A DNA stretch of 64,000 bases, from positions 256,001 through 320,000 of IMG/VR virus record IMGVR_UViG_3300028591_000070; one strand, 5' to 3'. Below, one piece after another: positions 4,327-58,545 of the stretch; position 1 is the first letter of the stretch; every line of letters starts with the position of its first letter. The translations under genes and the position numbers were made by a program. The notes beneath the pieces were generated by a model. The model was not told the DNA's origin, did not search any database, and saw only the letters and a list, made by a program, of their open reading frames with translations. This DNA is from a virus. Taxonomy: Duplodnaviria; Caudoviricetes.

Positions 4327-6180
4327 ATGTCAAGTCCAAGAGTTTTAGCAGGTAAGAAAAATTTCACAACAGTTAATGATGCATGGGAAGATTATTATTC
4401 TGAGAATAAGTTTGCTATTTCAGCAGATGTTCAGAAAGCTCTTAAGTATGTTCCTATTTATTATCAGAAGAAAAATCTTATGGCTATGGCTGCAGCTTAT
4501 TCTCTTTGGAATAGTGCTGAACAGCGATTTGAAATATTCTGTCCTAAGAATGCAGTTTTCCGTTCAACAAACCTTCATGAACTTGGACATATTTATTTCG
4601 GCCACTTAAAAAACTCTCGTAAGTATATTGCTATGGCTGAAAAAATCCTCGAACCTTATAGAAGTCAGATTGCAGATTTTCTTGATATAAGCCGCATGAA
4701 TGCAATCCATGATATTATCAATATTTGTATGGATTTTGAAATCAACTCAAAACTTTTTGTTACTAACAAAGAGCGAGAAGAATTGAATGCCTCAGTTCAA
4801 TTTTATTTAATGAGAAGACACGACACTAGAACTATTAGTTCTTTTATTAGTTCTTTTGATCCTGAAAAACTTTCTAAAGAAACTATAATTTTCTTCCCAG
4901 AAAACTTTGGTTTTCCTGGAAAAAAATCATTTCTTGAATATGTTCAAATGATGGTTGATTATTGTGTTCATCATAAAAAGCCAGAAATTCCACAGAATGG
5001 AACTGGTTCTTCTTATGAAGGTCAACTTTCTAATGAAACTAAAGGTGCAACTGCATTTTCTCTTCCTAGTAATAATACTGAAAATACTTCAAAAAATGAT
5101 GATGCTGAAGGTGACTCACCATTTAATGAAGAAGATGAAAATAATTCTGATGAAGAAAATAAACTTCCTTCATTTAATGAAAATAAATTGGAAGAAGAAA
5201 CTCAGGACAATTCTAACGAAGAAAACCCAGGTTCTGCTTCTTCTCCTAATGAAAATGATAAAGAAGAAGCTAATAGCAATAGTAGCAATAATGAAAAAGG
5301 TAAAGACTCAGTATCTTCAGATACTCCTCAAATTGAAGAAATAGATGATGATACTTTTGCTAAGCGTTTTAGAATTAATCGTGACACTAAAGAACAAAAA
5401 GATAACATTAAAGGAGAAGACTGCCGAGCTAATCGCAGAAATAGCGAACCTCTTTATGAACTTGAAGGTGAATCTCTTGACAATGAAATCTATAACTCTA
5501 AAACTTGGATGCTAGACCATGAAAGAGAAGAGGAAGAAATAAATAATCTTAAAGGAAAGGTTGACATAGCTTCTAATGCTTCTGAGATTAACAACTTTAT
5601 TCTTAAGAATGCTCTTCCTTCTATTGATATTTCATCTTATAATGATATTTTATACAACTATAATCGTGGTAAAACAACAGATGTATTTATCAATAAGGTA
5701 AGAACTCGTTCAACTTTCAGAAAGCCAAATGTTCATATTTTCACTGATGTTTCTGGCTCAATGGATGCTGAATATACTAAAAAGGTTGTAAAAGCTGTAA
5801 AAGCAATTAGCAGCCGTATTGATACTCGCTCATCAATTACATTTTATAATGAATGGGCCTTGAATACTGAAAAGTTTACAACTCTTAGTGATGAAGTTAT
5901 AAATAAATCATTTGTTGGTGGTGGCACTGAACTCGCTAGATCACTTAACAGAAATTATGTTAAAACTCAGGAAAATAACTCAGCTAATACTTTGGTTATT
6001 ATTTCAGATTTTTGTGATAATATCAGTGCAATTAAAAAATCATTTGATAATATCAAATCTACAATTCTTTGTATTGAAGTTGGAAACTCTAATAATGATG
6101 ATGTTGCTCAAGAATTCAAAGAAAATGAAATTAACAATGTAAAACACATAAAAATCGTAAATCGTCAATATGCTGCATAA
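4327..6180 (+). CDS. HExxH metallopeptidase-like + acidic linker + VWA domain protein (DUF2201-like)
   Basis: HELGH, NICMDFEIN, N/S/E-rich linker, MIDAS DVSGS..GGGT..ISDF; adjacent to MoxR ATPase. Confidence 0.85.
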   Translation: MSSPRVLAGKKNFTTVNDAWEDYYSENKFAISADVQKALKYVPIYYQKKNLMAMAAAYSLWNSAEQRFEIFCPKNAVFRSTNLHELGHIYFGHLKNSRKYIAMAEKILEPYRSQIADFLDISRMNAIHDIINICMDFEINSKLFVTNKEREELNASVQFYLMRRHDTRTISSFISSFDPEKLSKETIIFFPENFGFPGKKSFLEYVQMMVDYCVHHKKPEIPQNGTGSSYEGQLSNETKGATAFSLPSNNTENTSKNDDAEGDSPFNEEDENNSDEENKLPSFNENKLEEETQDNSNEENPGSASSPNENDKEEANSNSSNNEKGKDSVSSDTPQIEEIDDDTFAKRFRINRDTKEQKDNIKGEDCRANRRNSEPLYELEGESLDNEIYNSKTWMLDHEREEEEINNLKGKVDIASNASEINNFILKNALPSIDISSYNDILYNYNRGKTTDVFINKVRTRSTFRKPNVHIFTDVSGSMDAEYTKKVVKAVKAISSRIDTRSSITFYNEWALNTEKFTTLSDEVINKSFVGGGTELARSLNRNYVKTQENNSANTLVIISDFCDNISAIKKSFDNIKSTILCIEVGNSNNDDVAQEFKENEINNVKHIKIVNRQYAA

Positions 6181-6185
6181 TTGAT

Positions 6186-6220
6186 AAAAATCGCATTTTA
6201 TTAAAAAATGCGATTTTTTT
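6186..6220 (+). terminator. intrinsic terminator
   Basis: AAAAATCGCATTTT...AAAATGCGATTTTTTT. Confidence 0.75.
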
Positions 6221-6257
6221 GAATTTATTAAAACCTTAAGGTATTATCTATATAAGA
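6219..6257 (+). promoter_or_regulatory. class I promoter
   Basis: TTGAAT-17-TATTAT-CTATATAAGA. Confidence 0.75.
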
Positions 6258-6283
6258 AAACTTAAACAAAAGAGGTAAACTTT

Positions 6284-7597
6284 ATGAAAAATTTTGACAA
6301 AATGGTAAATGCTATTTCCCTTTCAAAGGATAGCGACGTTCCTTTCCTTTTAGTAGGAAATCCTGGTTTTGGTAAAACAACTGTAGTTCATGCTTGGGCT
6401 AAACAGAATGGTTACCATGTAGAAGAAATTATGGGTTCTTCATTCTCGCGTGATGAAGTTCTTGGTTACATGGTAAATGTAAATGGTTCTCTTGAAATGC
6501 TCGCTCCTTTTTGGTTCAAGAGAATTAAGAAACTTGCTGATGAAGGTACAAAATCAGTTTTATTTATTGATGAACTTTCAACAACTGGTGGTGATGTTCA
6601 GTCATCTCTCCTTCGTCTTATTTTTGAGCGTACAATTGGAAATGGTGATATGCTTCCTGAAGGAACTATCGTAATGTCAGCTGCTAACTATAAAGCAAAT
6701 CTTCCTGGTTACTGTGATGTTTCTTCTCCTGCTGTAAATCGTTTCTGTATTATCAATTTGGAAGAAGCTTCTCTTGAAACAATGGTTGATGACTATGTTA
6801 TCAATGAAATGCCTACTCCAAAAACTCCTAAGTTTGGTACAATCAATCCTTCAAAGTTACCTGACATCAGTGCTAAGATTGGTCTTTCAATGAAGAAGAC
6901 TTTTGTTAAATATTCAAATGGTGATGATGGCGGAAATGTACTCAACCCACTTAATCATAATCTCCAGATTTATGATGTTGAAAATGATACAAACACAAAG
7001 CGCCTTGCAAACTTTATCTCAGGTCGTTGTCTCAGCTATCTTAAGAGAGTACTTATAAGTATTGCAAAGTCTGATATTGAAGAAATTGAGCCACTTATCC
7101 GTGGAGCTGTAGAAGGTCTGGTAGGTGCTGGTACAAATACATTCCCAAGTGAAACTGTTCAGGAAGCATATATTTCTTATATGACAGACTCTTTTGTGGA
7201 AGATGTTGAAAAAATCCGTAGAATGTATGTAAAATATGATGCTACTCCAGCTTATGAAGCTATAACAGAAAAGCTAGTTGAAGACACAAAAGCTACTGCT
7301 TCTTCATCAAATCCTGATGAACTCTTCGAAAATATTCGCCGCAATGTAGAATATAACCCAGAAGAAAGAGAACAGATTGTTGCTGATATGGACCAGCTCG
7401 CTGTTGCACTTAAAATCAAAGGTCGCAACTTCGAAAAGAAGTATGCAACAAACCCTCTCTTTGCAGCAACTTGTAATTACATCATGAGTGTTTATACAAA
7501 TTATGTAAAAGCAAATCGTCTTAATCGCGAACTTGTAAATTATGTAAAGTATTATATGAACCGCATGGAAGAAACTTCTAAATCAGAAGTAGCTTAA
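6284..7597 (+). CDS. MoxR-like AAA+ ATPase
   Basis: Walker A GNPGFGKT, Walker B LFIDE, sensor AAN, Arg finger NRF. Confidence 0.9.
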   Translation: MKNFDKMVNAISLSKDSDVPFLLVGNPGFGKTTVVHAWAKQNGYHVEEIMGSSFSRDEVLGYMVNVNGSLEMLAPFWFKRIKKLADEGTKSVLFIDELSTTGGDVQSSLLRLIFERTIGNGDMLPEGTIVMSAANYKANLPGYCDVSSPAVNRFCIINLEEASLETMVDDYVINEMPTPKTPKFGTINPSKLPDISAKIGLSMKKTFVKYSNGDDGGNVLNPLNHNLQIYDVENDTNTKRLANFISGRCLSYLKRVLISIAKSDIEEIEPLIRGAVEGLVGAGTNTFPSETVQEAYISYMTDSFVEDVEKIRRMYVKYDATPAYEAITEKLVEDTKATASSSNPDELFENIRRNVEYNPEEREQIVADMDQLAVALKIKGRNFEKKYATNPLFAATCNYIMSVYTNYVKANRLNRELVNYVKYYMNRMEETSKSEVA

Positions 7598-50071: not shown

Positions 50072-51217
50072 TTAGTCCTCTATATTAGCTGAACTAGTAC
50101 AATGGATTTCATCTACTACATTACAAACAATATTTTCAGGTCCGACTTCATCACAATGTGTAAGTTCCAAAATTGTCTTAGTAATTTGTTTATCTTTAAT
50201 TATAGGATTTAAGTCATTCAAATCCTTTAGAATTCGCTGTGTAAGAAGCATTGAATTTAAAGCATTATACTTAAATTCACCTTGCCATTGATTATAATGA
50301 TTATTAAAATCTTCTTCAATATAAGAAGAAATCAACTTTCTTTTTACAGGACTAAAAGATTCATCATCGCCATGTCTTGTTTCATAAGTACGCGATACAT
50401 AATGGATAGTAAAAGACTCAATACAATCTTGTAAGAGAGATACAAAATTTCTATCTAAAGTTTTTAATCCTGTATAAGAAGGAGTCTTTTCAGAGTCATT
50501 GTTACCATTATCTCCAATAGCTAAACCCTGACCATTTTCAAAAATAACATTTTGATATAATTTAATAAATTCATAATTATTAACTGGTTTAGTTGTTCTA
50601 AACATAAACTCACAGTCGGAAATAAAATGGTCAATAAGTCCTTTTCTAAGAGCAAGATCAGTAAAAAATGGAGCATATTCTGGTAATAACTCATCTTTTG
50701 ATAAATTAGATTGATACCAGTTTGCAATATCATTAATATAGTTATATCGTTGTTTATAGTCATTTAGCATAAACTCATCAAATGACCACTTAAATCTTGA
50801 ATTAGAAAATCTTTGAATAGTTTTCCAAATACCCATACCACAAGTATTATGAATACCTCGATATAGGGCATTATTTTGATTTACGATAATATCAAATGGA
50901 GTAACCCATCTACAGTCTTTATGTCTAAAAATAGCAGGAGCGGTTTTCATCCAATTTAAGTTGTACTCCTGCATAAATTGCATTGGGTCCATAATAAACA
51001 TAGGACCAAAAAAACTTGCGCTTCCTAAACAAGAAGCGCTTCCAAAATGTTTATTATTATAAACTTTATCTTGATAAAAAACTGAATGTCCACGTTGAGC
51101 TCCACCATTATTTAATATAACTATTGTATTTGTAGGATCTTTAGCTGCAACTCTAGCTGTTATAGTACCTTTACCTTCGTCGCCATATCCAGCTCCGATT
51201 ACCATATGAACATTCAT
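50072..51217 (-). CDS. divergent adenylosuccinate synthetase (PurA)-like GTP-dependent ligase
   Basis: GAGYGDEGKG, GGAQRGHS, TCGMGI, FENGQG, TYETRHG, THCD; aspartate-binding TTGRxR loop replaced by NHYNQWQGEFKY. Confidence 0.85.
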   Translation of the reverse strand: MNVHMVIGAGYGDEGKGTITARVAAKDPTNTIVILNNGGAQRGHSVFYQDKVYNNKHFGSASCLGSASFFGPMFIMDPMQFMQEYNLNWMKTAPAIFRHKDCRWVTPFDIIVNQNNALYRGIHNTCGMGIWKTIQRFSNSRFKWSFDEFMLNDYKQRYNYINDIANWYQSNLSKDELLPEYAPFFTDLALRKGLIDHFISDCEFMFRTTKPVNNYEFIKLYQNVIFENGQGLAIGDNGNNDSEKTPSYTGLKTLDRNFVSLLQDCIESFTIHYVSRTYETRHGDDESFSPVKRKLISSYIEEDFNNHYNQWQGEFKYNALNSMLLTQRILKDLNDLNPIIKDKQITKTILELTHCDEVGPENIVCNVVDEIHCTSSANIED

Positions 51218-51228
51218 TATATTCTCCT

Positions 51229-51519
51229 TTACCAGGTGATTACATCATCTGATTTATGTTCAATTTTTAAAGATGAGTCATCATTTGTATGAAAGTCAAC
51301 CATACAAACTTTATCATTACCTTCAAGTTTAATAAAAGGTGTAGACTCTGCAGTCCATTGATCTTGCCAAATCTTTACATTTTTTACAGTAATATCATAA
51401 GATAAATCTGGATGCCTTTCTTTAAGATTTGGCCCATAAGTCGGATGATTTTTAGGATCAATATCCCAGTATAAAAAATCTTTTAATTCGGAAAGTTTGC
51501 CTTCAATAATAATTCTCAT
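51229..51519 (-). CDS. hypothetical protein ending VITW
   Basis: likely ATG 51519; C-terminus DDVITW. Confidence 0.7.
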   Translation of the reverse strand: MRIIIEGKLSELKDFLYWDIDPKNHPTYGPNLKERHPDLSYDITVKNVKIWQDQWTAESTPFIKLEGNDKVCMVDFHTNDDSSLKIEHKSDDVITW

Positions 51520-51527
51520 AGCTGCAC

Positions 51528-51872
51528 CTACCAAGTAATAACATTATCAAGAAGGCCTTCATTAGCAGTTCCTTCTAGATTATACATTTTTTCAAATGTT
51601 TGTTCAGGATAAACAGACCAGTCAGTGTTACTTCTTTTAATGATATAAGAGCCTTCACCTATATGAACTCTTCGTCTGTCTCCCTCTTCATTGATATAAG
51701 ATGCATTAAAATAATTCCATCCATGATAATCGTGTTCATAGTCTATAGAAGCCACTTGAGGTAAAAATTTACGTATTTCTGCGGCTATATTAAAACTATT
51801 TTCTTCATTTAACTGAGGAATGTGAATGCATTCACCCTCATCTGGAATGCGCTTACACTTATAAACTACCAT
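51528..51872 (-). CDS. phage hypothetical protein (paralog of 51866..52177) ending VITW
   Basis: GSYIIK..VYPEQTFEKMY; C-terminus DNVITW. Confidence 0.75.
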   Translation of the reverse strand: MVVYKCKRIPDEGECIHIPQLNEENSFNIAAEIRKFLPQVASIDYEHDYHGWNYFNASYINEEGDRRRVHIGEGSYIIKRSNTDWSVYPEQTFEKMYNLEGTANEGLLDNVITW

Positions 51873-52177
51873 GTTATTACCCCTGTTGAGTCATCCATAG
51901 GTTCGTATACTTTTTTAAAAGTCTCATCTTTTACAGGATAAATAGAACCATCAATGCCTTTAACAAGCCAACCATTTTTAGGACAAAACATTTCACTTCC
52001 ATCAGGTTTAGTTATGATAAAAACTTCATCTCCATCAATGTCATTATCCCATTCTACTTCTAGATCTTCCCAATTGTCAATAATCCAATCTGCAATTTCT
52101 TCTGCATTTTCATCGCTACCTGTAAACTGAACAGCTTCAACAATAATTGGCTTTTTACGGAATTTCTGCAAAGTCAT
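51866..52177 (-). CDS. common phage small protein (RKKP..VEAVQF family) ending VITW
   Basis: FRKKPIIVEAVQFTG..WLVKGIDG..YPVK..F...YE; C-terminus TGVITW. Confidence 0.8.
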   Translation of the reverse strand: MTLQKFRKKPIIVEAVQFTGSDENAEEIADWIIDNWEDLEVEWDNDIDGDEVFIITKPDGSEMFCPKNGWLVKGIDGSIYPVKDETFKKVYEPMDDSTGVITW

Positions 52178-52194
52178 TCTATTTTCTCCTATTT

Positions 52195-52220
52195 AATAGA
52201 GGAGCCGAAGCTCCTCTATT
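52195..52220 (-). terminator. cUUCGg-capped hairpin (leaky terminator or RNA stabiliser)
   Basis: AATAGAGGAGC-TTCG-GCTCCTCTATT on - strand, weak U-tract. Confidence 0.6.
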
Positions 52221-52224
52221 TATT

Positions 52225-53148
52225 TTACCAAGTTACAACACCAATAGTTGCATTATCTTCTGTAAGATGTTCTGTTTCTTCACCAGCATTCTCGATAGAA
52301 GATTCAATACAATCCATAATTGTCTTGTTCAAATTGTTAATTGTTGATACCTTGTATCTTTCACCAAGAAGCTGCTTAAATCCTTTCATATTTTTATCTT
52401 CATAAAAATCTTTATCAGGATTTTCGATATACTTCTTGTTGTTTGAATAACAAGTTTCATCATCATCTACAGAAATATGATAAATATCAAACTTCTTAGA
52501 AGCGGCTTTGTAAAGGTCTGGTGTCTTAAGAGAACCAAACTCTTCAGCGCCTTCAGGACGTCCAAAATATTCAACAATTCTGTTTTCCGGCAAATCAGGA
52601 TTTAATGGCTCATCACCCATCGTAATGATGATACCTTTTCGTCCCTGTTTGTCATAAGCATCAAGTTTTGTACGGTAGAGACCAAAGAACCAAGGAGCTG
52701 TATAGCTTTCCCAGTTATTTCCACCACCATGATGCTCCATCCAAATATCATCAAGCTGTTTTGCTACACGGACATCAGACTCAAACTGAGAAACCTGGAG
52801 TGGAGAGTAGTCACATTCAAAGTCACCAACTCCCATAACCATGATTTCAATATCCTTAAACTTCTTATAAAGTTTATCCATCATAGCGCCCAAAGCTGCA
52901 GCAGTTTCCTGACAAGCAGAACCCATAGAACCTGTAACATCCAAAGCGAGAATTACAGGTATTGTATTTGGGTGTTCAGCAGTGTTGATACATTCACGGA
53001 TTTTGTTCTTAGGATTCATAGTCTCCTTCATTGAAGAAGAAGTCCATGCCTGCCCTGAAGTAACACGCAATGTTGAAGCATCAACACTTTTTTTCATCGA
53101 CCTTGAATAAGTTACAAAGTCTGAACTTGAATATGCTCCTCCACCCAT
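52225..53148 (-). CDS. VWA (MIDAS) domain protein ending VVTW
   Basis: MGGG start, ALDVTGSMG, QVSQFESD, GGGN..ESY, ITMGDE; C-terminus IGVVTW. Confidence 0.88.
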   Translation of the reverse strand: MGGGAYSSSDFVTYSRSMKKSVDASTLRVTSGQAWTSSSMKETMNPKNKIRECINTAEHPNTIPVILALDVTGSMGSACQETAAALGAMMDKLYKKFKDIEIMVMGVGDFECDYSPLQVSQFESDVRVAKQLDDIWMEHHGGGNNWESYTAPWFFGLYRTKLDAYDKQGRKGIIITMGDEPLNPDLPENRIVEYFGRPEGAEEFGSLKTPDLYKAASKKFDIYHISVDDDETCYSNNKKYIENPDKDFYEDKNMKGFKQLLGERYKVSTINNLNKTIMDCIESSIENAGEETEHLTEDNATIGVVTW

Positions 53149-53151
53149 GTT

Positions 53152-54033
53152 TTACTCCTCATCGTCGTCAGCTTCTGCTTCAGCTTTTTCTTCTTCAGTT
53201 GCATCTTCTGCACCTGAGAAATCAAGCTCTGAGAACATACTTGCAAATGGATTTTCACCATCTTCACCACCGAAAATAGCAGCGAATGGATTTGCATCTG
53301 TCTTTCCACCAAACATTCCACCCATCATCTGCATCATAACCATCTGACCAAACATGTTTCCACCACCAAATGGACTGCAAGCATCTGCGACGTTTCCGCC
53401 ATTCATCATACCATTCATCATCTGGCTCATGAGCTGCATTTTAAACATCTGGCCAAACATGTTACCATTAGATGCCATACCTTTAAAGGGACACCAGATT
53501 TTAGCATAGAAGAATACTTTTCCCATAAGGATGTGACGTTCTGGAAGAACCTGCTTAAGTTCGTTGTCTTCATAGTCAAGAGCTGTAATAACTCCGTTAT
53601 CAACCTTGATTACAAAGCGTGGTACGCGGCGGTCACCTTTCTGCATAAGAATAATATCACCAACCTGAAGTGTATTTGTTGGAATAAGCCAGAACATGTT
53701 GAACATGTCAAAAGCGAAAGAACCAACATTTGTCAAGCGGTTTTTTTTAGCATCATAAGTTTTGTAACCACTTGGTGTCTTAATTGCAATTTTACCATTC
53801 ATACCGAGCTTGCACTTTCCTGCCTCGATAGGACCAAACATTCCCTTAAACATCTTACCCATGTCACCCATACCAAAATCGTTCATATCTTTATTCTCCT
53901 TGGGATTTTCTTCCCCATTATTATATTCAATTGAGTAGGAAGGTCTGCTGTACCTAGGTATCATAATCATTCCTTCCTCGCCATAATTCATTCTACTAAA
54001 ATCTGCAAACCTTGTCCAATTTGCTACACTCAT
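53152..54033 (-). CDS. Met/Gly-rich hypothetical protein (second, SD-supported in-frame start at 53886)
   Basis: FKGMFG..GKCKLGMNG.IA.K..YKTY; MMMQMMGG low-complexity C-terminal half; acidic tail. Confidence 0.75.
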   Translation of the reverse strand: MSVANWTRFADFSRMNYGEEGMIMIPRYSRPSYSIEYNNGEENPKENKDMNDFGMGDMGKMFKGMFGPIEAGKCKLGMNGKIAIKTPSGYKTYDAKKNRLTNVGSFAFDMFNMFWLIPTNTLQVGDIILMQKGDRRVPRFVIKVDNGVITALDYEDNELKQVLPERHILMGKVFFYAKIWCPFKGMASNGNMFGQMFKMQLMSQMMNGMMNGGNVADACSPFGGGNMFGQMVMMQMMGGMFGGKTDANPFAAIFGGEDGENPFASMFSELDFSGAEDATEEEKAEAEADDDEE

Positions 54034-54512
54034 AGTAATTTGGCCTTTTTCTTAAGATAAGCTCTTACTAGCATAAGAGTAAATCCAAGAAGGTTTTGTC
54101 CTTGCCACTTTGAAATATCCTGAACCCTTGGGTCATCTTCAGCCATATGAATAGCCCAAATGTTATCAGTAGGATTACATTCAACAAGAATATCATCACC
54201 TGTGTCAAGAAGTTGCTTTGCCAAATCTGGATTTTGTTCAAACTTAGCTTTAAGACCTTCATACACTACAATTTGACGAACACCATTCCAAACAGTGTCG
54301 TTATAATTGCGCACTTTTCTACCAAGACCTTTAATTTCGCTTGGAGAGGTTGAAGCCAGAATTTTCTGAGCAATTTCATCATCTCCAAAAGTCTTAGCTT
54401 TCTGATACATCATCCACTGTTCACTGTTGATAAACTTTACTCCATCAACAGTAAATTCGCTTTTGTACCAGTTACTTAAGAAACCTTTCAAAAAAGGATG
54501 GATTTTAGCCAT
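54030..54512 (-). CDS. NADAR (YbiA-like) family protein
   Basis: FLSNWY, SEQWMMYQKA, GRKV, KFEQN, LVE.NP.D.IW, GQNLLG. Confidence 0.95.
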   Translation of the reverse strand: MAKIHPFLKGFLSNWYKSEFTVDGVKFINSEQWMMYQKAKTFGDDEIAQKILASTSPSEIKGLGRKVRNYNDTVWNGVRQIVVYEGLKAKFEQNPDLAKQLLDTGDDILVECNPTDNIWAIHMAEDDPRVQDISKWQGQNLLGFTLMLVRAYLKKKAKLL

Positions 54513-54515
54513 ATA

Positions 54516-55325
54516 TTACAACTCCTTGAAATAATCTACCATTCCTGAGTCAGGATGTGGCATCTGAATAATTTCAATCTTAAACTTCATCTTGTTATAG
54601 AGTTTAACAATTCGATTAATTTCATCTACTGTAAAATCAACTTCATCCATTTCTCTACGAATAAAATGGTCCAATCTTTCATATGTGAAGTTTGGAATAT
54701 CCAACTGCTTAGAAAGATTCTGCTCATCTGTTGAGCCACACATTCCATCATCTGGAGCTTTCATAACCAAATCTTCTGGAGCACCCAAAGCCAAACCAAT
54801 CTGTCTTACTTCTGAAACAGTGTAGTCACAAATTGGACCATAACTTCCGGCGCTATCTCCATAGAATGTTGAATATCCAAGGACATCTTCGCTGCGGTTG
54901 CAAGTGTTCAAAACACGACCACCAAGAATTGCTGCAACTCCATAAAGAGTTGTCATTCGCAATCTCGCAGGAGTATTTGTAGAATACTGGCTTGGAATTT
55001 CATTGTTAAGAACTCCATTTGATACATCATCCATAAGGTTGACACAAATGGCTCCTGTAAGAGCTCTATAAGCATCACCAATATTTACAGTCAAATTCTT
55101 AATTCCAAGTAATTCACAAACTCTCTTTGAGTCGGCTATGTCCTTCTGTTCGCCATTAGGCATCATAACTCCAACAACATTTTCCTTACCATAAGCTTTT
55201 ACAGCAAGGTAAGCTACGACTGTTGAGTCTTTTCCACCTGAAATACCAATTACGGCCTTTCCAGATGGATTAGATGCTCTCAAGCCATTTACAATATTTT
55301 CAATAGCAAGATTAGCATCAAACAT
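54516..55325 (-). CDS. nadE: NH3-dependent NAD+ synthetase
   Basis: GISGGKDS, NTPARLRM, NRSE..GYST.YGD, KAP.DG..G.TDE. Confidence 0.93.
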   Translation of the reverse strand: MFDANLAIENIVNGLRASNPSGKAVIGISGGKDSTVVAYLAVKAYGKENVVGVMMPNGEQKDIADSKRVCELLGIKNLTVNIGDAYRALTGAICVNLMDDVSNGVLNNEIPSQYSTNTPARLRMTTLYGVAAILGGRVLNTCNRSEDVLGYSTFYGDSAGSYGPICDYTVSEVRQIGLALGAPEDLVMKAPDDGMCGSTDEQNLSKQLDIPNFTYERLDHFIRREMDEVDFTVDEINRIVKLYNKMKFKIEIIQMPHPDSGMVDYFKEL

Positions 55326-55327
55326 AA

Positions 55328-56800
55328 CTACTCAATCTCCTTAGCAAGGCGGGCACGAATATCCATCAAATTCTGGCGGTTGAAATAAACACCATTTACG
55401 AAAACAACCTGCATTTCATCTTTGTGAGCTGCAGCAAGTTTATCATATTCATGTTCAGTCAAACCATCTGTTGCAACATAGTCATTTCCAACTTTTTCAA
55501 CAAAAACCAAACCTTTGTGAGATTTCTTAAGTTTTGCTGTATCAGTTTTTGGATCTTTTACAACTTCAAGTTCGCGGCCGTCCATAAGCTGAATATATGT
55601 AGTTTTCTGTGCAAAACCGAAAGTATCACGAGTTGATACAATCATCTTGTCACCTTCAAAGAAAGCATGGAAACAGAAAGCACCTACACCAAAGAGACAG
55701 TTTGTTGCGGCAAACTTCATTTCTTCAAGCTTTTTCCAGATTTTTTCAACCTGTTTAAGAGTACATCCATCACCGAGGATCATTCCAACATGTGGATTTA
55801 ATACCTTGTAACCCTTCTTGTTTTCAGTACCACCAAATGTTTCCCAAAGAGACTGAACTGTCTGGATAACATTTTCATACTGGTCACCAGAGTCTGGACG
55901 AATAAGGATTTTACCTTCGTGAGCAAGAATTTCTTCTTTAATTTCAGGAAGAACATTCTTTACAATGTCCCAATAATCATAAGTATCGGCAACATAGCTG
56001 AAGTTTTTGTACTGCTTAAGAAGCTTGAGAATAAGCTCTTTTTCAGAAGTGCCAACAGCAACATTTGAACTTACTACAGAGTGTTCAATTGAAACTGCAC
56101 CAATTCCAAGGTGATTGTAAGAACAATCAGCATTGTAGAAATAATCAAGCCAAGAAATAGCAGGAACTGTTGAAGTCTTATTGAATGAAATCAACCAAGA
56201 AGCAGAAGTTTTACAAGCTTCTTCCATACAAGACATTCCGCGCATTCCAAAGTCTGAAGCAGCCATACGAGGGTCAGCACCATCTGTTGTTTTGTCATAC
56301 CACTTCTTTGCGATTTTGTAGTACATATAACCAGCAGTTGCGTCATTACAAGGCTTCCAAACTTCACCCTGCAACCAGCATTCTGTCCACTGAGCCAACC
56401 AAGCAAAATCAGGGTCTGTATTTTCTACAGAAGCGATAGGAACTCCCATATTTACAAGAGAACCTTCTGGAAGAGCTTTAATCTTAAGTGGAAGATAACC
56501 GAGACGATGCAGCTTTTCAATGTGGCTTGTTTCATAGTTTCCTGGGCCAAGCTGAAGATTCATCTTCTTTTCATAATCTGCGATTACTTCAGAAGTAGGC
56601 TTAGCAAACCAAGCATCTGCATTTTCTTTGAAATTTTTAATAAAGGCTTGAATACCGAAAACAACAACTTTCTGCTGTTTTTCGAACATAGATTTGCGGG
56701 GAACAAGATAACTAACGAGTTTAGTCATCCCTTTTGGATAAACGTCAACATGACAGTTTTTGTAGGTGTCAGCTACATCAGGCATCATAAAATGAAACAT
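55328..56800 (-). CDS. Nampt/Namat-family phosphoribosyl (or ADP-ribosyl) transferase, probably nicotinate-preferring
   Basis: DTYK..H, DFGMRG, SFNKTSTVPA, EHSV, DTYD, IRPDSGD, GDG, FGVG, RDT.GFA.K, KDPKTD..KKS.KG. Confidence 0.9.
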   Translation of the reverse strand: MFHFMMPDVADTYKNCHVDVYPKGMTKLVSYLVPRKSMFEKQQKVVVFGIQAFIKNFKENADAWFAKPTSEVIADYEKKMNLQLGPGNYETSHIEKLHRLGYLPLKIKALPEGSLVNMGVPIASVENTDPDFAWLAQWTECWLQGEVWKPCNDATAGYMYYKIAKKWYDKTTDGADPRMAASDFGMRGMSCMEEACKTSASWLISFNKTSTVPAISWLDYFYNADCSYNHLGIGAVSIEHSVVSSNVAVGTSEKELILKLLKQYKNFSYVADTYDYWDIVKNVLPEIKEEILAHEGKILIRPDSGDQYENVIQTVQSLWETFGGTENKKGYKVLNPHVGMILGDGCTLKQVEKIWKKLEEMKFAATNCLFGVGAFCFHAFFEGDKMIVSTRDTFGFAQKTTYIQLMDGRELEVVKDPKTDTAKLKKSHKGLVFVEKVGNDYVATDGLTEHEYDKLAAAHKDEMQVVFVNGVYFNRQNLMDIRARLAKEIE

Positions 56801-56807
56801 AATTTTT

Positions 56808-56902
56808 TATCTCCTATATAAGTCGAATATGTTTTTTGATAGTCACTAAGAACTGTGCCACCTAATTATGGTTATTCTTAGCAACATCTAAATTATATTA
56901 AC
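56808..56902 (-). promoter_or_regulatory. class II promoter plus structured 5' leader (candidate riboswitch-like motif), copy A
   Basis: GTTAATATAATT; stem GTTGCTAAGAAT/GTTCTTAGTGAC enclosing CCA-TAATTAGG-TGG; tail TTCGACTTATATAGGAGA. Confidence 0.6.
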
Positions 56903-57683
56903 AGACTTCTACGAAGTCGTTAGTACCACGGTAAATTGAATTTGTAGTAAATACTTTTGTAATTCCAGCTTCTTTAAGAGCATCAATATCAATTACATTT
57001 TCGCAGTGTGAAATGTAGAGATATACATCTTTTGCTCCAAGCTTTTTAAGCTCAATAGCTGAATATTTGAAAGTACCACCTTTTGAACAAATATCATCAA
57101 TGATGAGAATGTTCTTATCTTTGATAGCTTCTGGATTTCCCTTAATTTCAAGACCAAGGATTTTTCCGCTGCGCCAATCACGAGTTTTTTCACCAACTAC
57201 GATTTCATAATTTTCTTTAACTATATCCAAAGTAGAATAGCGTTTACAAGCACCAGCATCTGGGAACATAATTGTCTCAACATCAAGTGGAAGTTCTTTC
57301 AAGAAGTTTTCAATTGTCTGAAGTCCATTGTCCTGAATATTATCGATAAGAGCGCGAGAAACATCTGAGTGTGCATTATCAACAATAACAGCCTTAAAAT
57401 CCATTGCATTTAAAACTTTTGCAAAAGACTTAAGAGTAAATACTTCATCTGGATTTTTAACACGATCCATTCGTGCATTTGGAATATAAGGCATCTCCAA
57501 GAAAAGATTGCAGCCTTTATAAAAATCAGCAATACATTGAAGAGTGAAAAGTTCACTCATAGAGTCAAACAACCAAGTTACAGTTATCTGCTGATTATTT
57601 TTAATCTTAGGGTCAAGTCGAAAAAGTGGAGTTCCATCAGGAAAGTTTTCAACTTTAATTTTAATGTCATTTACTTTAATCAA
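56898..57683 (-). CDS. Prs-like pyrophosphokinase (candidate Adps, ADPR-PP synthetase)
   Basis: FPDG, MPYIPNARMDR, AHS, FPDAGA..RY, K.RD..SGKI, IIDDICSKGGTF; adjacent to Nampt-like gene. Confidence 0.92.
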   Translation of the reverse strand: MIKVNDIKIKVENFPDGTPLFRLDPKIKNNQQITVTWLFDSMSELFTLQCIADFYKGCNLFLEMPYIPNARMDRVKNPDEVFTLKSFAKVLNAMDFKAVIVDNAHSDVSRALIDNIQDNGLQTIENFLKELPLDVETIMFPDAGACKRYSTLDIVKENYEIVVGEKTRDWRSGKILGLEIKGNPEAIKDKNILIIDDICSKGGTFKYSAIELKKLGAKDVYLYISHCENVIDIDALKEAGITKVFTTNSIYRGTNDFVEVC

Positions 57684-57724
57684 AGGTTTTTCCTCATATC
57701 CGCCGGCAAAAGCCGGCTGGAATA

Positions 57725-57958
57725 TTAGCGACGCTTACGAGGAGTTCTTCCCCACATCTGCATCTGTTTTACAAAAAAATCATACAACTCGTTAAAGTCG
57801 TGATTACCTTCACTGGCAACAAGAGCGATATACTCTCGTGCGTCCGCTACATCTTCAGAGCACTTAGCTCGGCCGATGTAGTTTTTGATAATTCTTTTAG
57901 GATTATCAATAGCATCCTTCTTTGTGAAGGAGTCTACACCAAGGTTCTTTTTATCCAA
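57725..57958 (-). CDS. small hypothetical protein
   Basis: class I promoter (TTGTAA-17-TATAAT, 57979-58007) and GGAGG SD. Confidence 0.65.
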   Translation of the reverse strand: MDKKNLGVDSFTKKDAIDNPKRIIKNYIGRAKCSEDVADAREYIALVASEGNHDFNELYDFFVKQMQMWGRTPRKRR

Positions 57959-57996
57959 GACCTTTCCTCCATAAATAGATTATACCAAGAGTTGGA

Positions 57997-58545
57997 TTAT
58001 TTTACAAAAATTTGTTGTGATTTAAGTACATTCATTGCAGATTTTTGACCTTCTTCAGAGAGGTCAGCACAACAAGAGCTATCAACTATTATTGGCATTT
58101 CTGGAAAAAATGACTTAAGTAAAGTGGCGTTACTACAAACACAGATTGATGAAACTGTTCCAATAATTTCAATCTCTTCAGGGAAGTCACCAGGCTGATT
58201 ATTTTCATCATTGAAAAGTTCGTTAAATTTAGCTTTCCAGTCTTTATAGCCAAATGTAGGCTTGTCAACAATAAATGCATTTTTTGCAAATTCCTGAAGT
58301 TCTGGAACGATTTCCCAACCTTTTGTACCTTCAATGCAGTGTTCAACTGGAAGATTTTTTCCTTCCTGTGTTTCAAGATAATTTTTTTGATGTGTATCGC
58401 GAGTAAAAATAAGATATGTGTAGTCTTTAGCTTTAAGCTTTTCTACAATATTTGGAATGATTTTTTCTGCGGCAGGATTTGCCAAAGAACCAGTTACGAA
58501 GTCGTTTTGCATATCAACGACAATAAGAAGTTTGTTTTTCTTCAT
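57997..58545 (-). CDS. pncA: nicotinamidase (isochorismatase family cysteine hydrolase)
   Basis: VVDMQNDF, DTH, PVEHC..GT.G, DK.TFG, ICV..N; located in NAD cluster. Confidence 0.88.
   Translation of the reverse strand: MKKNKLLIVVDMQNDFVTGSLANPAAEKIIPNIVEKLKAKDYTYLIFTRDTHQKNYLETQEGKNLPVEHCIEGTKGWEIVPELQEFAKNAFIVDKPTFGYKDWKAKFNELFNDENNQPGDFPEEIEIIGTVSSICVCSNATLLKSFFPEMPIIVDSSCCADLSEEGQKSAMNVLKSQQIFVK

Follow-up and report, generated by a model that had tools for sequence, protein, structure and literature searches.

Several described systems read the last few residues of a protein. The HbYX ends of proteasome activators, PDZ ligands, and the EEVD and PTS1 ends bound by TPR proteins comprise three or four terminal residues with a hydrophobic anchor and a free carboxylate. 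The C-terminal tail of the single-stranded DNA-binding protein (SSB-Ct, DDDIPF) is one tail serving many partners, and the encapsulin targeting peptide follows a consensus of the L-x-I-G-S-L type. In Family 1 encapsulins, C-terminal targeting peptides are short, sit on flexible linkers, and occur on unrelated cargo proteins encoded beside the receptor gene (PMC7925596). Here, we analyze a terminal tail shared by four consecutive minus-strand genes, V-[IV]-T-W-stop, in a 64,000-nucleotide stretch of DNA from a giant phage of the gut (hereafter the window; positions 256,001 to 320,000 of the 385,934-base IMG/VR record IMGVR_UViG_3300028591_000070). Comparison with relatives indicates that this tail is a real, undescribed, and repeatedly transferred terminal tag linked to one operon, and that it is primarily the family ending of a clade of vWA-fold proteins.

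Four consecutive genes with one ending

The minus-strand gene order is NAD-salvage genes, NADAR, a Met-rich protein, a vWA-fold protein, three small proteins, and a PurA-like enzyme. The part from the Met-rich gene onward is laid out as follows.

53152 to 53886, minus strand: Met-rich protein, 244 aa from the ATG at 53886 behind a GGAG site (frame open from 54033); candidate receptor of the tail
52225 to 53148, minus strand: vWA-fold protein, 307 aa (phrog_2971, E 3.9e-41), ending in tail 1
52225 to 52239, minus strand: tail 1, V-V-T-W-stop of the vWA gene, read from the sequence
51866 to 52177, minus strand: PGDYG-like phage domain, 103 aa (phrog_419, E 2.9e-19), with tail 2 at 51866 to 51880
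51528 to 51872, minus strand: diverged paralog of the 103-aa protein, 114 aa (profile comparison), with tail 3 at 51528 to 51542
51229 to 51519, minus strand: 96-aa protein of no known family (start ATG 51519, as in homologs), with tail 4 at 51229 to 51243
50072 to 51217, minus strand: PurA-like (adenylosuccinate-synthetase-fold) enzyme, 381 aa (Pfam PF00709, E 2.7e-10); second candidate receptor

The four endings, IGVVTW, TGVITW, DNVITW, and DDVITW, and the codons listed for them in a preliminary description of the locus were confirmed exactly. That description had seen no other open reading frame (ORF) with such an ending, and a proteome scan extends this to the whole record: [VI][VI]TW closes 4 of 554 non-shadow ORFs, all consecutive, where amino acid composition predicts 0.005 (436 ORFs of at least 80 aa). 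Among the four genes, the last 15 nt agree at 11-12 positions and the preceding 45 nt at only 11-17, so the tails are not part of a longer DNA repeat. A longer repeat or att-like site was considered and not found behind them; the likeness ends at the tail codons. The linkers had been called acidic and flexible. Flexibility agrees with the vWA model (predicted local distance difference test, pLDDT, 86), in which residues 294-307 score below 50 as an unstructured C-terminal linker and tail; the acidity is only mild, with 3-4 D/E and 0-2 K/R in the 12 residues before each tail.

A family ending of the vWA proteins

The vWA homolog set comprised 6,859 proteins in the length range searched. All 120 of the best homologs end in W, and over 223 distinct loci the vWA protein ends in W in 199 and in [IVL]xW in 183. 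The tail is therefore first of all the ending of this vWA clade. The expectation that relatives would conserve the motif was borne out in the form [IVL]-x-W-stop (consensus I-x-W-stop), with S, T, V, or R in the middle and W last; the V and T of the window are peculiar to its own clade. Invariant positions in the vWA family are the N-terminal M-G of an MGxG start, D70 and S74 of a D70-x-T-x-S74 motif of metal-ion-dependent adhesion site (MIDAS) type, T176, D179, and the terminal W307.

The usual layout of Met-rich, vWA, and PurA-like genes occurs in gut phages and in metagenome-assembled genomes (MAGs) labeled Lachnospiraceae, Bacteroidales, Treponema, and others, and ruminant gut samples hold close relatives of this virus. 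One syntenic phage-type locus (P0011, L008-L010) carries a vWA protein that NCBI labels as from a Campylobacter sp. MAG; it is probably a phage contig in a bin and is no evidence of host. Module relatives in cultured phages (mycobacteriophages of the I3/Bxz1 group, Vibrio phage phiKT1024, and Rhizobium phage RHph_TM2_3B) have tail-less vWA proteins. At L328:5729-6004, a tail-less vWA gene and a PurA-like gene flank the gene of a 91-aa protein that by eye resembles ubiquitin or ThiS, and another vWA gene lies downstream. The vWA/PurA-like module occurs widely in large phages and gut bacteria.

Selection on the terminal peptide

A W-stop after A forms an ATGGTAR start/stop overlap, and G-E-I-T-W-stop (GGA GAA ATT ACA TGG TAA) can double as GGAG, spacer, and ATG. 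The ending could then be a by-product, either of combining a ribosome-binding site with the overlap or of copying the vWA 3' end when a gene was inserted. The locus offers an example, as the 114-aa gene begins inside a 7-nt ATGGTAG overlap with tail 2 of the 103-aa gene. Carrier arrays often use this overlap, and it is possible in 16 of 34 carriers, a count that speaks for the by-product and against selection on the peptide. The remaining 18 carriers have no usable overlap. The codon and overlap test covered 134 vWA clusters, 121 of them with a next gene; a usable ATGGTAR overlap is missing in 98 of these 121, and C precedes TGG in 45 of the 134. Every Ile codon and every stop codon is represented in the tail, and Ser in the middle position is written TCN 40 times and AGY 27 times. 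Such variation in synonymous codons and stops upholds the earlier claim that conservation lies at the peptide level rather than in a DNA repeat, and the overlap, which the preliminary description had named as a possible cause of the likeness, does not explain it. Carriers also lie both upstream and downstream of the operon, their tails can differ from the local vWA tail, paralogs at about 25% identity keep the tail, and 30 of 31 homologs of the 96-aa protein end in [IVL]xW despite linkers up to 8 residues longer. Judged from sequence comparison, the tail is selected as a peptide, and the by-product account is very unlikely. Largely refuted for the conservation, that route may explain the first tail gains, and the overlap, common within carrier arrays, could have eased duplication.

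Where the 114-aa and 96-aa genes are naturally fused (P0320, P0323), the inner tail has been lost and the terminal one kept, as expected if the free carboxylate matters. W is last or next to last in 193 of 194 vWA loci with a Met-rich gene. Two PGDYG-like genes upstream of Met-rich genes (L178:3869-4237, L182:799-1158), sister to the tailed L040 gene, are exceptions to the terminal position: they read through V-I-N-W into eight further residues. Elsewhere, 170 kb from the operon, a 100-aa ORF (G000:C1:136428-136730, plus strand) ends in DNVIW and shares an ATGGTAA overlap with the gene after it. It may be an isolated carrier, or the overlap may have produced its ending by chance; L337:1480-1908 has a comparable W-stop overlap that lacks the I.

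Small carrier proteins and spread of the tail

The four tailed proteins had been assigned to at least three unrelated families. Three is the exact number, not a minimum: the vWA family, one PGDYG-like family that unites the 103-aa and 114-aa proteins (tail-less hidden Markov model E 3.6e-6; hhalign probability 90.8), and the 96-aa protein, which shows no likeness to those two and no match in Pfam, PHROG, NCBIfam, or Atlas. The model of the 103-aa protein (pLDDT 91.5) has a loose tail, with residues 98-100 below 50, and its fold matches proteins named PGDYG. Its match to Pfam PGDYG (PF14083) reaches 15.6 bits against a gathering threshold of 27, and 4 of 88 relatives show a weak match. No clear relative of the model emerged among solved structures (best Z 6.0, root-mean-square deviation 3.1, 69 aligned; Foldseek E 0.5), and PDB sequence searches likewise gave no clear match, the phage nucleotide sponges Tad1, Tad2, Acb2, and Acb4 included.

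PGDYG-like domains are frequent in phages, with 3,004 representatives. Among the 150 best, 140 are untailed and 10 tailed, and the 10 are exactly those with a remodeled G-x-D-G-S-x-Y motif, an operon-linked subfamily that includes the 103-aa protein. All four tailed representatives with enough DNA adjoin a PurA-like gene. This subfamily probably reflects one or two gains, not ten. Family members away from the operon were anticipated to lack the tail, and none of 81 has it (80 viral loci without the operon); the second PGDYG-like gene of this genome ends in TYEVVE. An Atlas cluster contains the domain in 242-aa proteins, 71% of them with the Acb2/Tad1 sponge hairpin, and one PHROG family links it to a nucleotide pyrophosphohydrolase. 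These associations hint at nucleotide binding as its predicted role. NAD+ and ADP-ribose genes often neighbor the operon in this clade.

Besides vWA, 46 distinct proteins in operon loci carry the tail. They fall into 10 sequence groups; 28 are PGDYG-like, and the others include helical proteins of 83-98 aa and proteins of 146-170 aa. A PHROG search with ten other carriers gave no family beyond one weak match, and Pfam and PHROG searches gave no SSB family match for the carriers. The tail closes 22 of 30 genes between vWA and PurA-like, 6 of 114 just upstream of Met-rich, 4 of 126 immediately after PurA-like (a single family in near-identical copies), and 2 of 1311 elsewhere in the loci. The longest arrays, in L004 and L008, comprise four carriers; in L337, three precede Met-rich. 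Tails at the same locus differ from one another and from the local vWA tail (AIVW, EITW, and AIRW at L015), and in this they are unlike fresh DNA copies. With 28 of 46 carriers in one family, the pattern is partly descent, which counts against repeated transfer as its full explanation. A literature search on the module, the tail, or PGDYG, covering few subscription journals, gave no relevant paper. Through the tail, sequence data suffice to identify additional system members, ten protein groups to date, and its repeated copying by phages onto unrelated genes is a clear case of growth by motif transfer.

Candidate readers of the tail

The preliminary description had proposed a terminal signal that recruits its carriers to one hub. 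Terminal recognition tied to the operon is the best reading of the sequences, and the tail probably docks to some protein of the operon; which one, we infer from gene content. A host reader had also been listed, as a complex, and could be a protease that recognizes a C-terminal degron or the partner of a host motif mimicked by the tail, such as that of SSB. An acidic linker followed by an I-x-aromatic end resembles SSB-Ct and hydrophobic C-degrons, but the same tail occurs in phages and in MAGs labeled Lachnospiraceae, Bacteroidales, Treponema, and Myxococcales and is nearly confined to the operon (the 2 of 1311 above). It also varies with the operon's own upstream gene, and a host complex is for this reason unlikely.

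That upstream gene encodes the Met-rich protein. We give an even chance to the reading in which the tail is a docking motif that tethers vWA to Met-rich, with the carriers joining or competing at the same site. The Met-rich protein combines a beta-rich N-terminal domain holding a KOW/SH3-like segment, a Met/Gly-rich region, and an acidic end; its matches to Pfam DUF2187/GPKOW_C are weak and below cut-off, and its profile has no PDB match below E 0.18. Presence of this gene was compared with the tail in core-clade vWA proteins after 95% clustering. With Met-rich, vWA ends in W or W plus one residue in the 193 of 194 loci already given. Without it, W is kept in 3 of 11 and [IVL]xW in 1 of 11, while the vWA proteins score in full and PurA-like is still adjacent. 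A search of eight such MAGs, which are incomplete, did not find Met-rich, and the same search found it in a control. On the tree, Met-rich loss and the tail give 8 changes across several nested lineages. Where a J-domain pseudokinase stands in place of Met-rich, all 16 endings are non-W, of a hydrophobic F/L type and mostly I/V-x-F; this change may perhaps reflect phylogeny only. No extra I-x-F carriers were found beside these J-type operons, save for a single protein family some 2-3 kb downstream in L295 and L325.

Several observations weigh against a Met-rich reader. Well-supported independent pairs number only 4 (2.7 in the same direction, 0.2 opposite, p 0.25), so that the co-loss is a lead rather than proof and the test is underpowered. 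All co-loss cases lie in incomplete bacterial MAGs, and L381 lacks Met-rich and keeps LIFW. In the cultured Vibrio and Rhizobium phages, a gene distantly like Met-rich accompanies a tail-less vWA, so the tail is dispensable for the module as a whole. At L262, finally, two tailed genes directly follow a PurA-like gene, and neither vWA nor Met-rich is encoded within 10 kb. A sub-clade from Lachnospiraceae MAGs (L099, L104, L105, L110, L213) holds most of the Met-rich losses. Its vWA ending has become an amphipathic stretch plus T-A-x-W, and L-F or I-F has been added at the end of its Met-rich protein; the two may have changed together.

L262 directs attention to the PurA-like enzyme, the other hub named earlier within the operon. 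Its pocket could receive the tailed proteins as substrates or regulators, for example with a purine nucleotide ligated to an amine that replaces aspartate. In favor of this pocket, the space between vWA and PurA-like holds most carriers, W-type and F-type operons have PurA-like in common, and the aspartate loop of the enzyme is replaced. PDB profile matches (E 1.6e-27) confirm the likeness, and GDxGKG (including Asp13), the conserved His44, and E-x-x-Q-G are all retained. The T-T-G-R-x-R aspartate-binding loop is replaced by N-x-x-N-x-x-Q-G-x-x-R/K-Y at what we take to be the position of the E. coli loop, matched by eye. Scores fall to 25 bits for TIGR00184 (cut-off 396) and 18 bits for the PurZ model NF038379 (cut-off 300). 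PurZ identity was rejected, as the catalytic Asp13 is kept rather than Ser and is Asp in 100% of 84 PurA-like sequences. The jumbo-phage survey PMC7824862 contains no mention of adenylosuccinate or PurA. As speculation, the invariant N-terminal M-G of vWA is a candidate amine for such a ligation. Against a pocket on this enzyme, 8 of 11 operons without Met-rich keep PurA-like and have lost W, the Vibrio, Rhizobium, and mycobacteriophage vWA/PurA-like pairs are tail-less, and ten carriers lie upstream of Met-rich. L262 is possibly a split operon, and its PurA-like protein has no relative in viral_contigs. Gene co-loss thus favors Met-rich and one locus points the other way; a PurA-like pocket is possible but not the answer we expect.

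A third option starts from the vWA fold. In integrins, acidic ligands complete the MIDAS metal site, and the tail carboxylate might do so for vWA in trans, with carriers capping or competing in a vWA oligomer. The MIDAS-type residues are invariant and the model matches integrin beta I domains (Foldseek E 2e-7). The same residues persist, however, in vWA proteins that lost or never had the tail, tail loss follows another gene, and the L262 carriers have no nearby vWA; we regard this option as quite unlikely. MoxR, also put forward as a hub, was rejected: searches with the genome's own AAA ATPase as query gave no match in about 400 operon loci. Two AAA_5 (MoxR-like) ATPases lie about 44 and 170 kb off (window 4327-7597, plus strand; G000:C1:134311-135672, minus strand), the former preceded by a 617-aa gene that is a possible partner. 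Complex prediction for PurA-like, vWA 1-289, Met-rich 1-224, and the 103-aa protein scored 0.33, 0.38, and 0.31, with controls at 0.00 (unrelated partners) and 0.22 (PurA-like replaced). These values are no evidence either way and were not used.

Proposed mechanism

Returning to the docking of vWA on Met-rich, I-x-W and the free C-terminal carboxylate would form a short docking motif. In an ancestral three-gene operon, this motif on its flexible linker would tie vWA to the Met-rich protein encoded upstream, which would act as scaffold or adaptor of a vWA/PurA-like enzyme complex. Several gut phage lineages may then have transferred the tail to small accessory proteins whose genes lie within the operon or next to it. 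Most of these proteins would stem from a single PGDYG-like gene that was duplicated in tandem, a process eased by the ATGGTAR overlap of the W-stop. Tagged proteins would bind the same site, either entering the complex or competing against the vWA tail. They could be modifiers, nucleotide carriers, or substrates of a GTP-dependent ligase near NAD+ and ADP-ribose genes.

A bolder extension, which we consider doubtful, is a plug-in platform in which a Met-rich oligomer or condensate captures I-x-W proteins and phages reprogram a PurA-fold nucleotide ligase through tagged genes. If true, nucleotide-binding PGDYG-like domains might, for example, deliver NAD+-derived immune signals for modification, or the carriers might be nucleotidylated. 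In practical terms, the tail would be a three-residue handle on the module, and a W to A point mutation would test assembly. A three-residue tag with its receptor is also a potentially useful tool.

Genomic surroundings

Two further features accompany the tailed genes.

52195 to 52220, no strand assigned: 11-bp hairpin at the junction of the vWA gene and the first small gene (-17.9 kcal/mol, z -3.2)
54030 to 58545, minus strand: untailed upstream genes, comprising NADAR (54030-54512), NAD synthase, NAMPT/NAPRTase-like, PRPP-synthetase-like, and isochorismatase/nicotinamidase-like genes

The hairpin is terminator-like, with a T-rich tail on the plus strand only. Similar hairpins occur at matching junctions in L004 and L011, and the element may adjust the stoichiometry of carriers to core proteins. 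NADAR was called by Pfam and the other NAD-salvage genes by Pfam matches of the syntenic L004 and L008 genes. They stand in a single row immediately upstream of the operon, with synteny in L004 and L008 and, in part, in L255, and constitute a phage NAD+ salvage cluster that resembles NARP-type routes. In one close relative (L005:2415-3341), a 308-aa DUF7487 gene, absent from L004 and the window, sits between the PRPP-synthetase-like and NAMPT-like genes. At 95-100% identity, contigs from gut RNA libraries match the small genes, vWA, and Met-rich in part, with DNA carry-over possible.

Comparison with known systems

The module as a whole recalls the chaperone-adaptor pairs of MoxR AAA+ and vWA proteins in jumbo phages (PMC7824862), where a MIDAS vWA protein likewise adjoins a presumed client enzyme; here, MoxR's place is taken by Met-rich or the J-domain pseudokinase. 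The PurA-like enzyme shares with PurA (PF00709) and PurZ (NF038379) the fold, GDxGKG, E-x-x-Q-G, and the positions of the catalytic Asp and His. It departs from PurA in the replaced aspartate loop, in scores far below the family cut-offs, and in traveling with vWA.

For the tail itself, the HbYX, PDZ, and TPR-type ends offer the parallel of unrelated proteins converging on one pocket, as we infer here. The sequence differs, and Pfam scans found no proteasome, PDZ, or TPR families among the operon proteins. SSB-Ct shares an acidic linker followed by an I-x-aromatic C-terminus. It differs in that many proteins here carry one tail, no Pro is conserved, and W replaces F in this clade. Encapsulin targeting peptides present the same arrangement of many clients and, as predicted for this operon, one hub, although Pfam scans of the operon proteins found no encapsulin shell family. 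The motif of the present operon is a three-residue, aromatic-ended I-x-W-stop at the very terminus, not the L-x-I-G-S-L peptide, and its founding carrier would be a core subunit, the vWA protein, rather than cargo.

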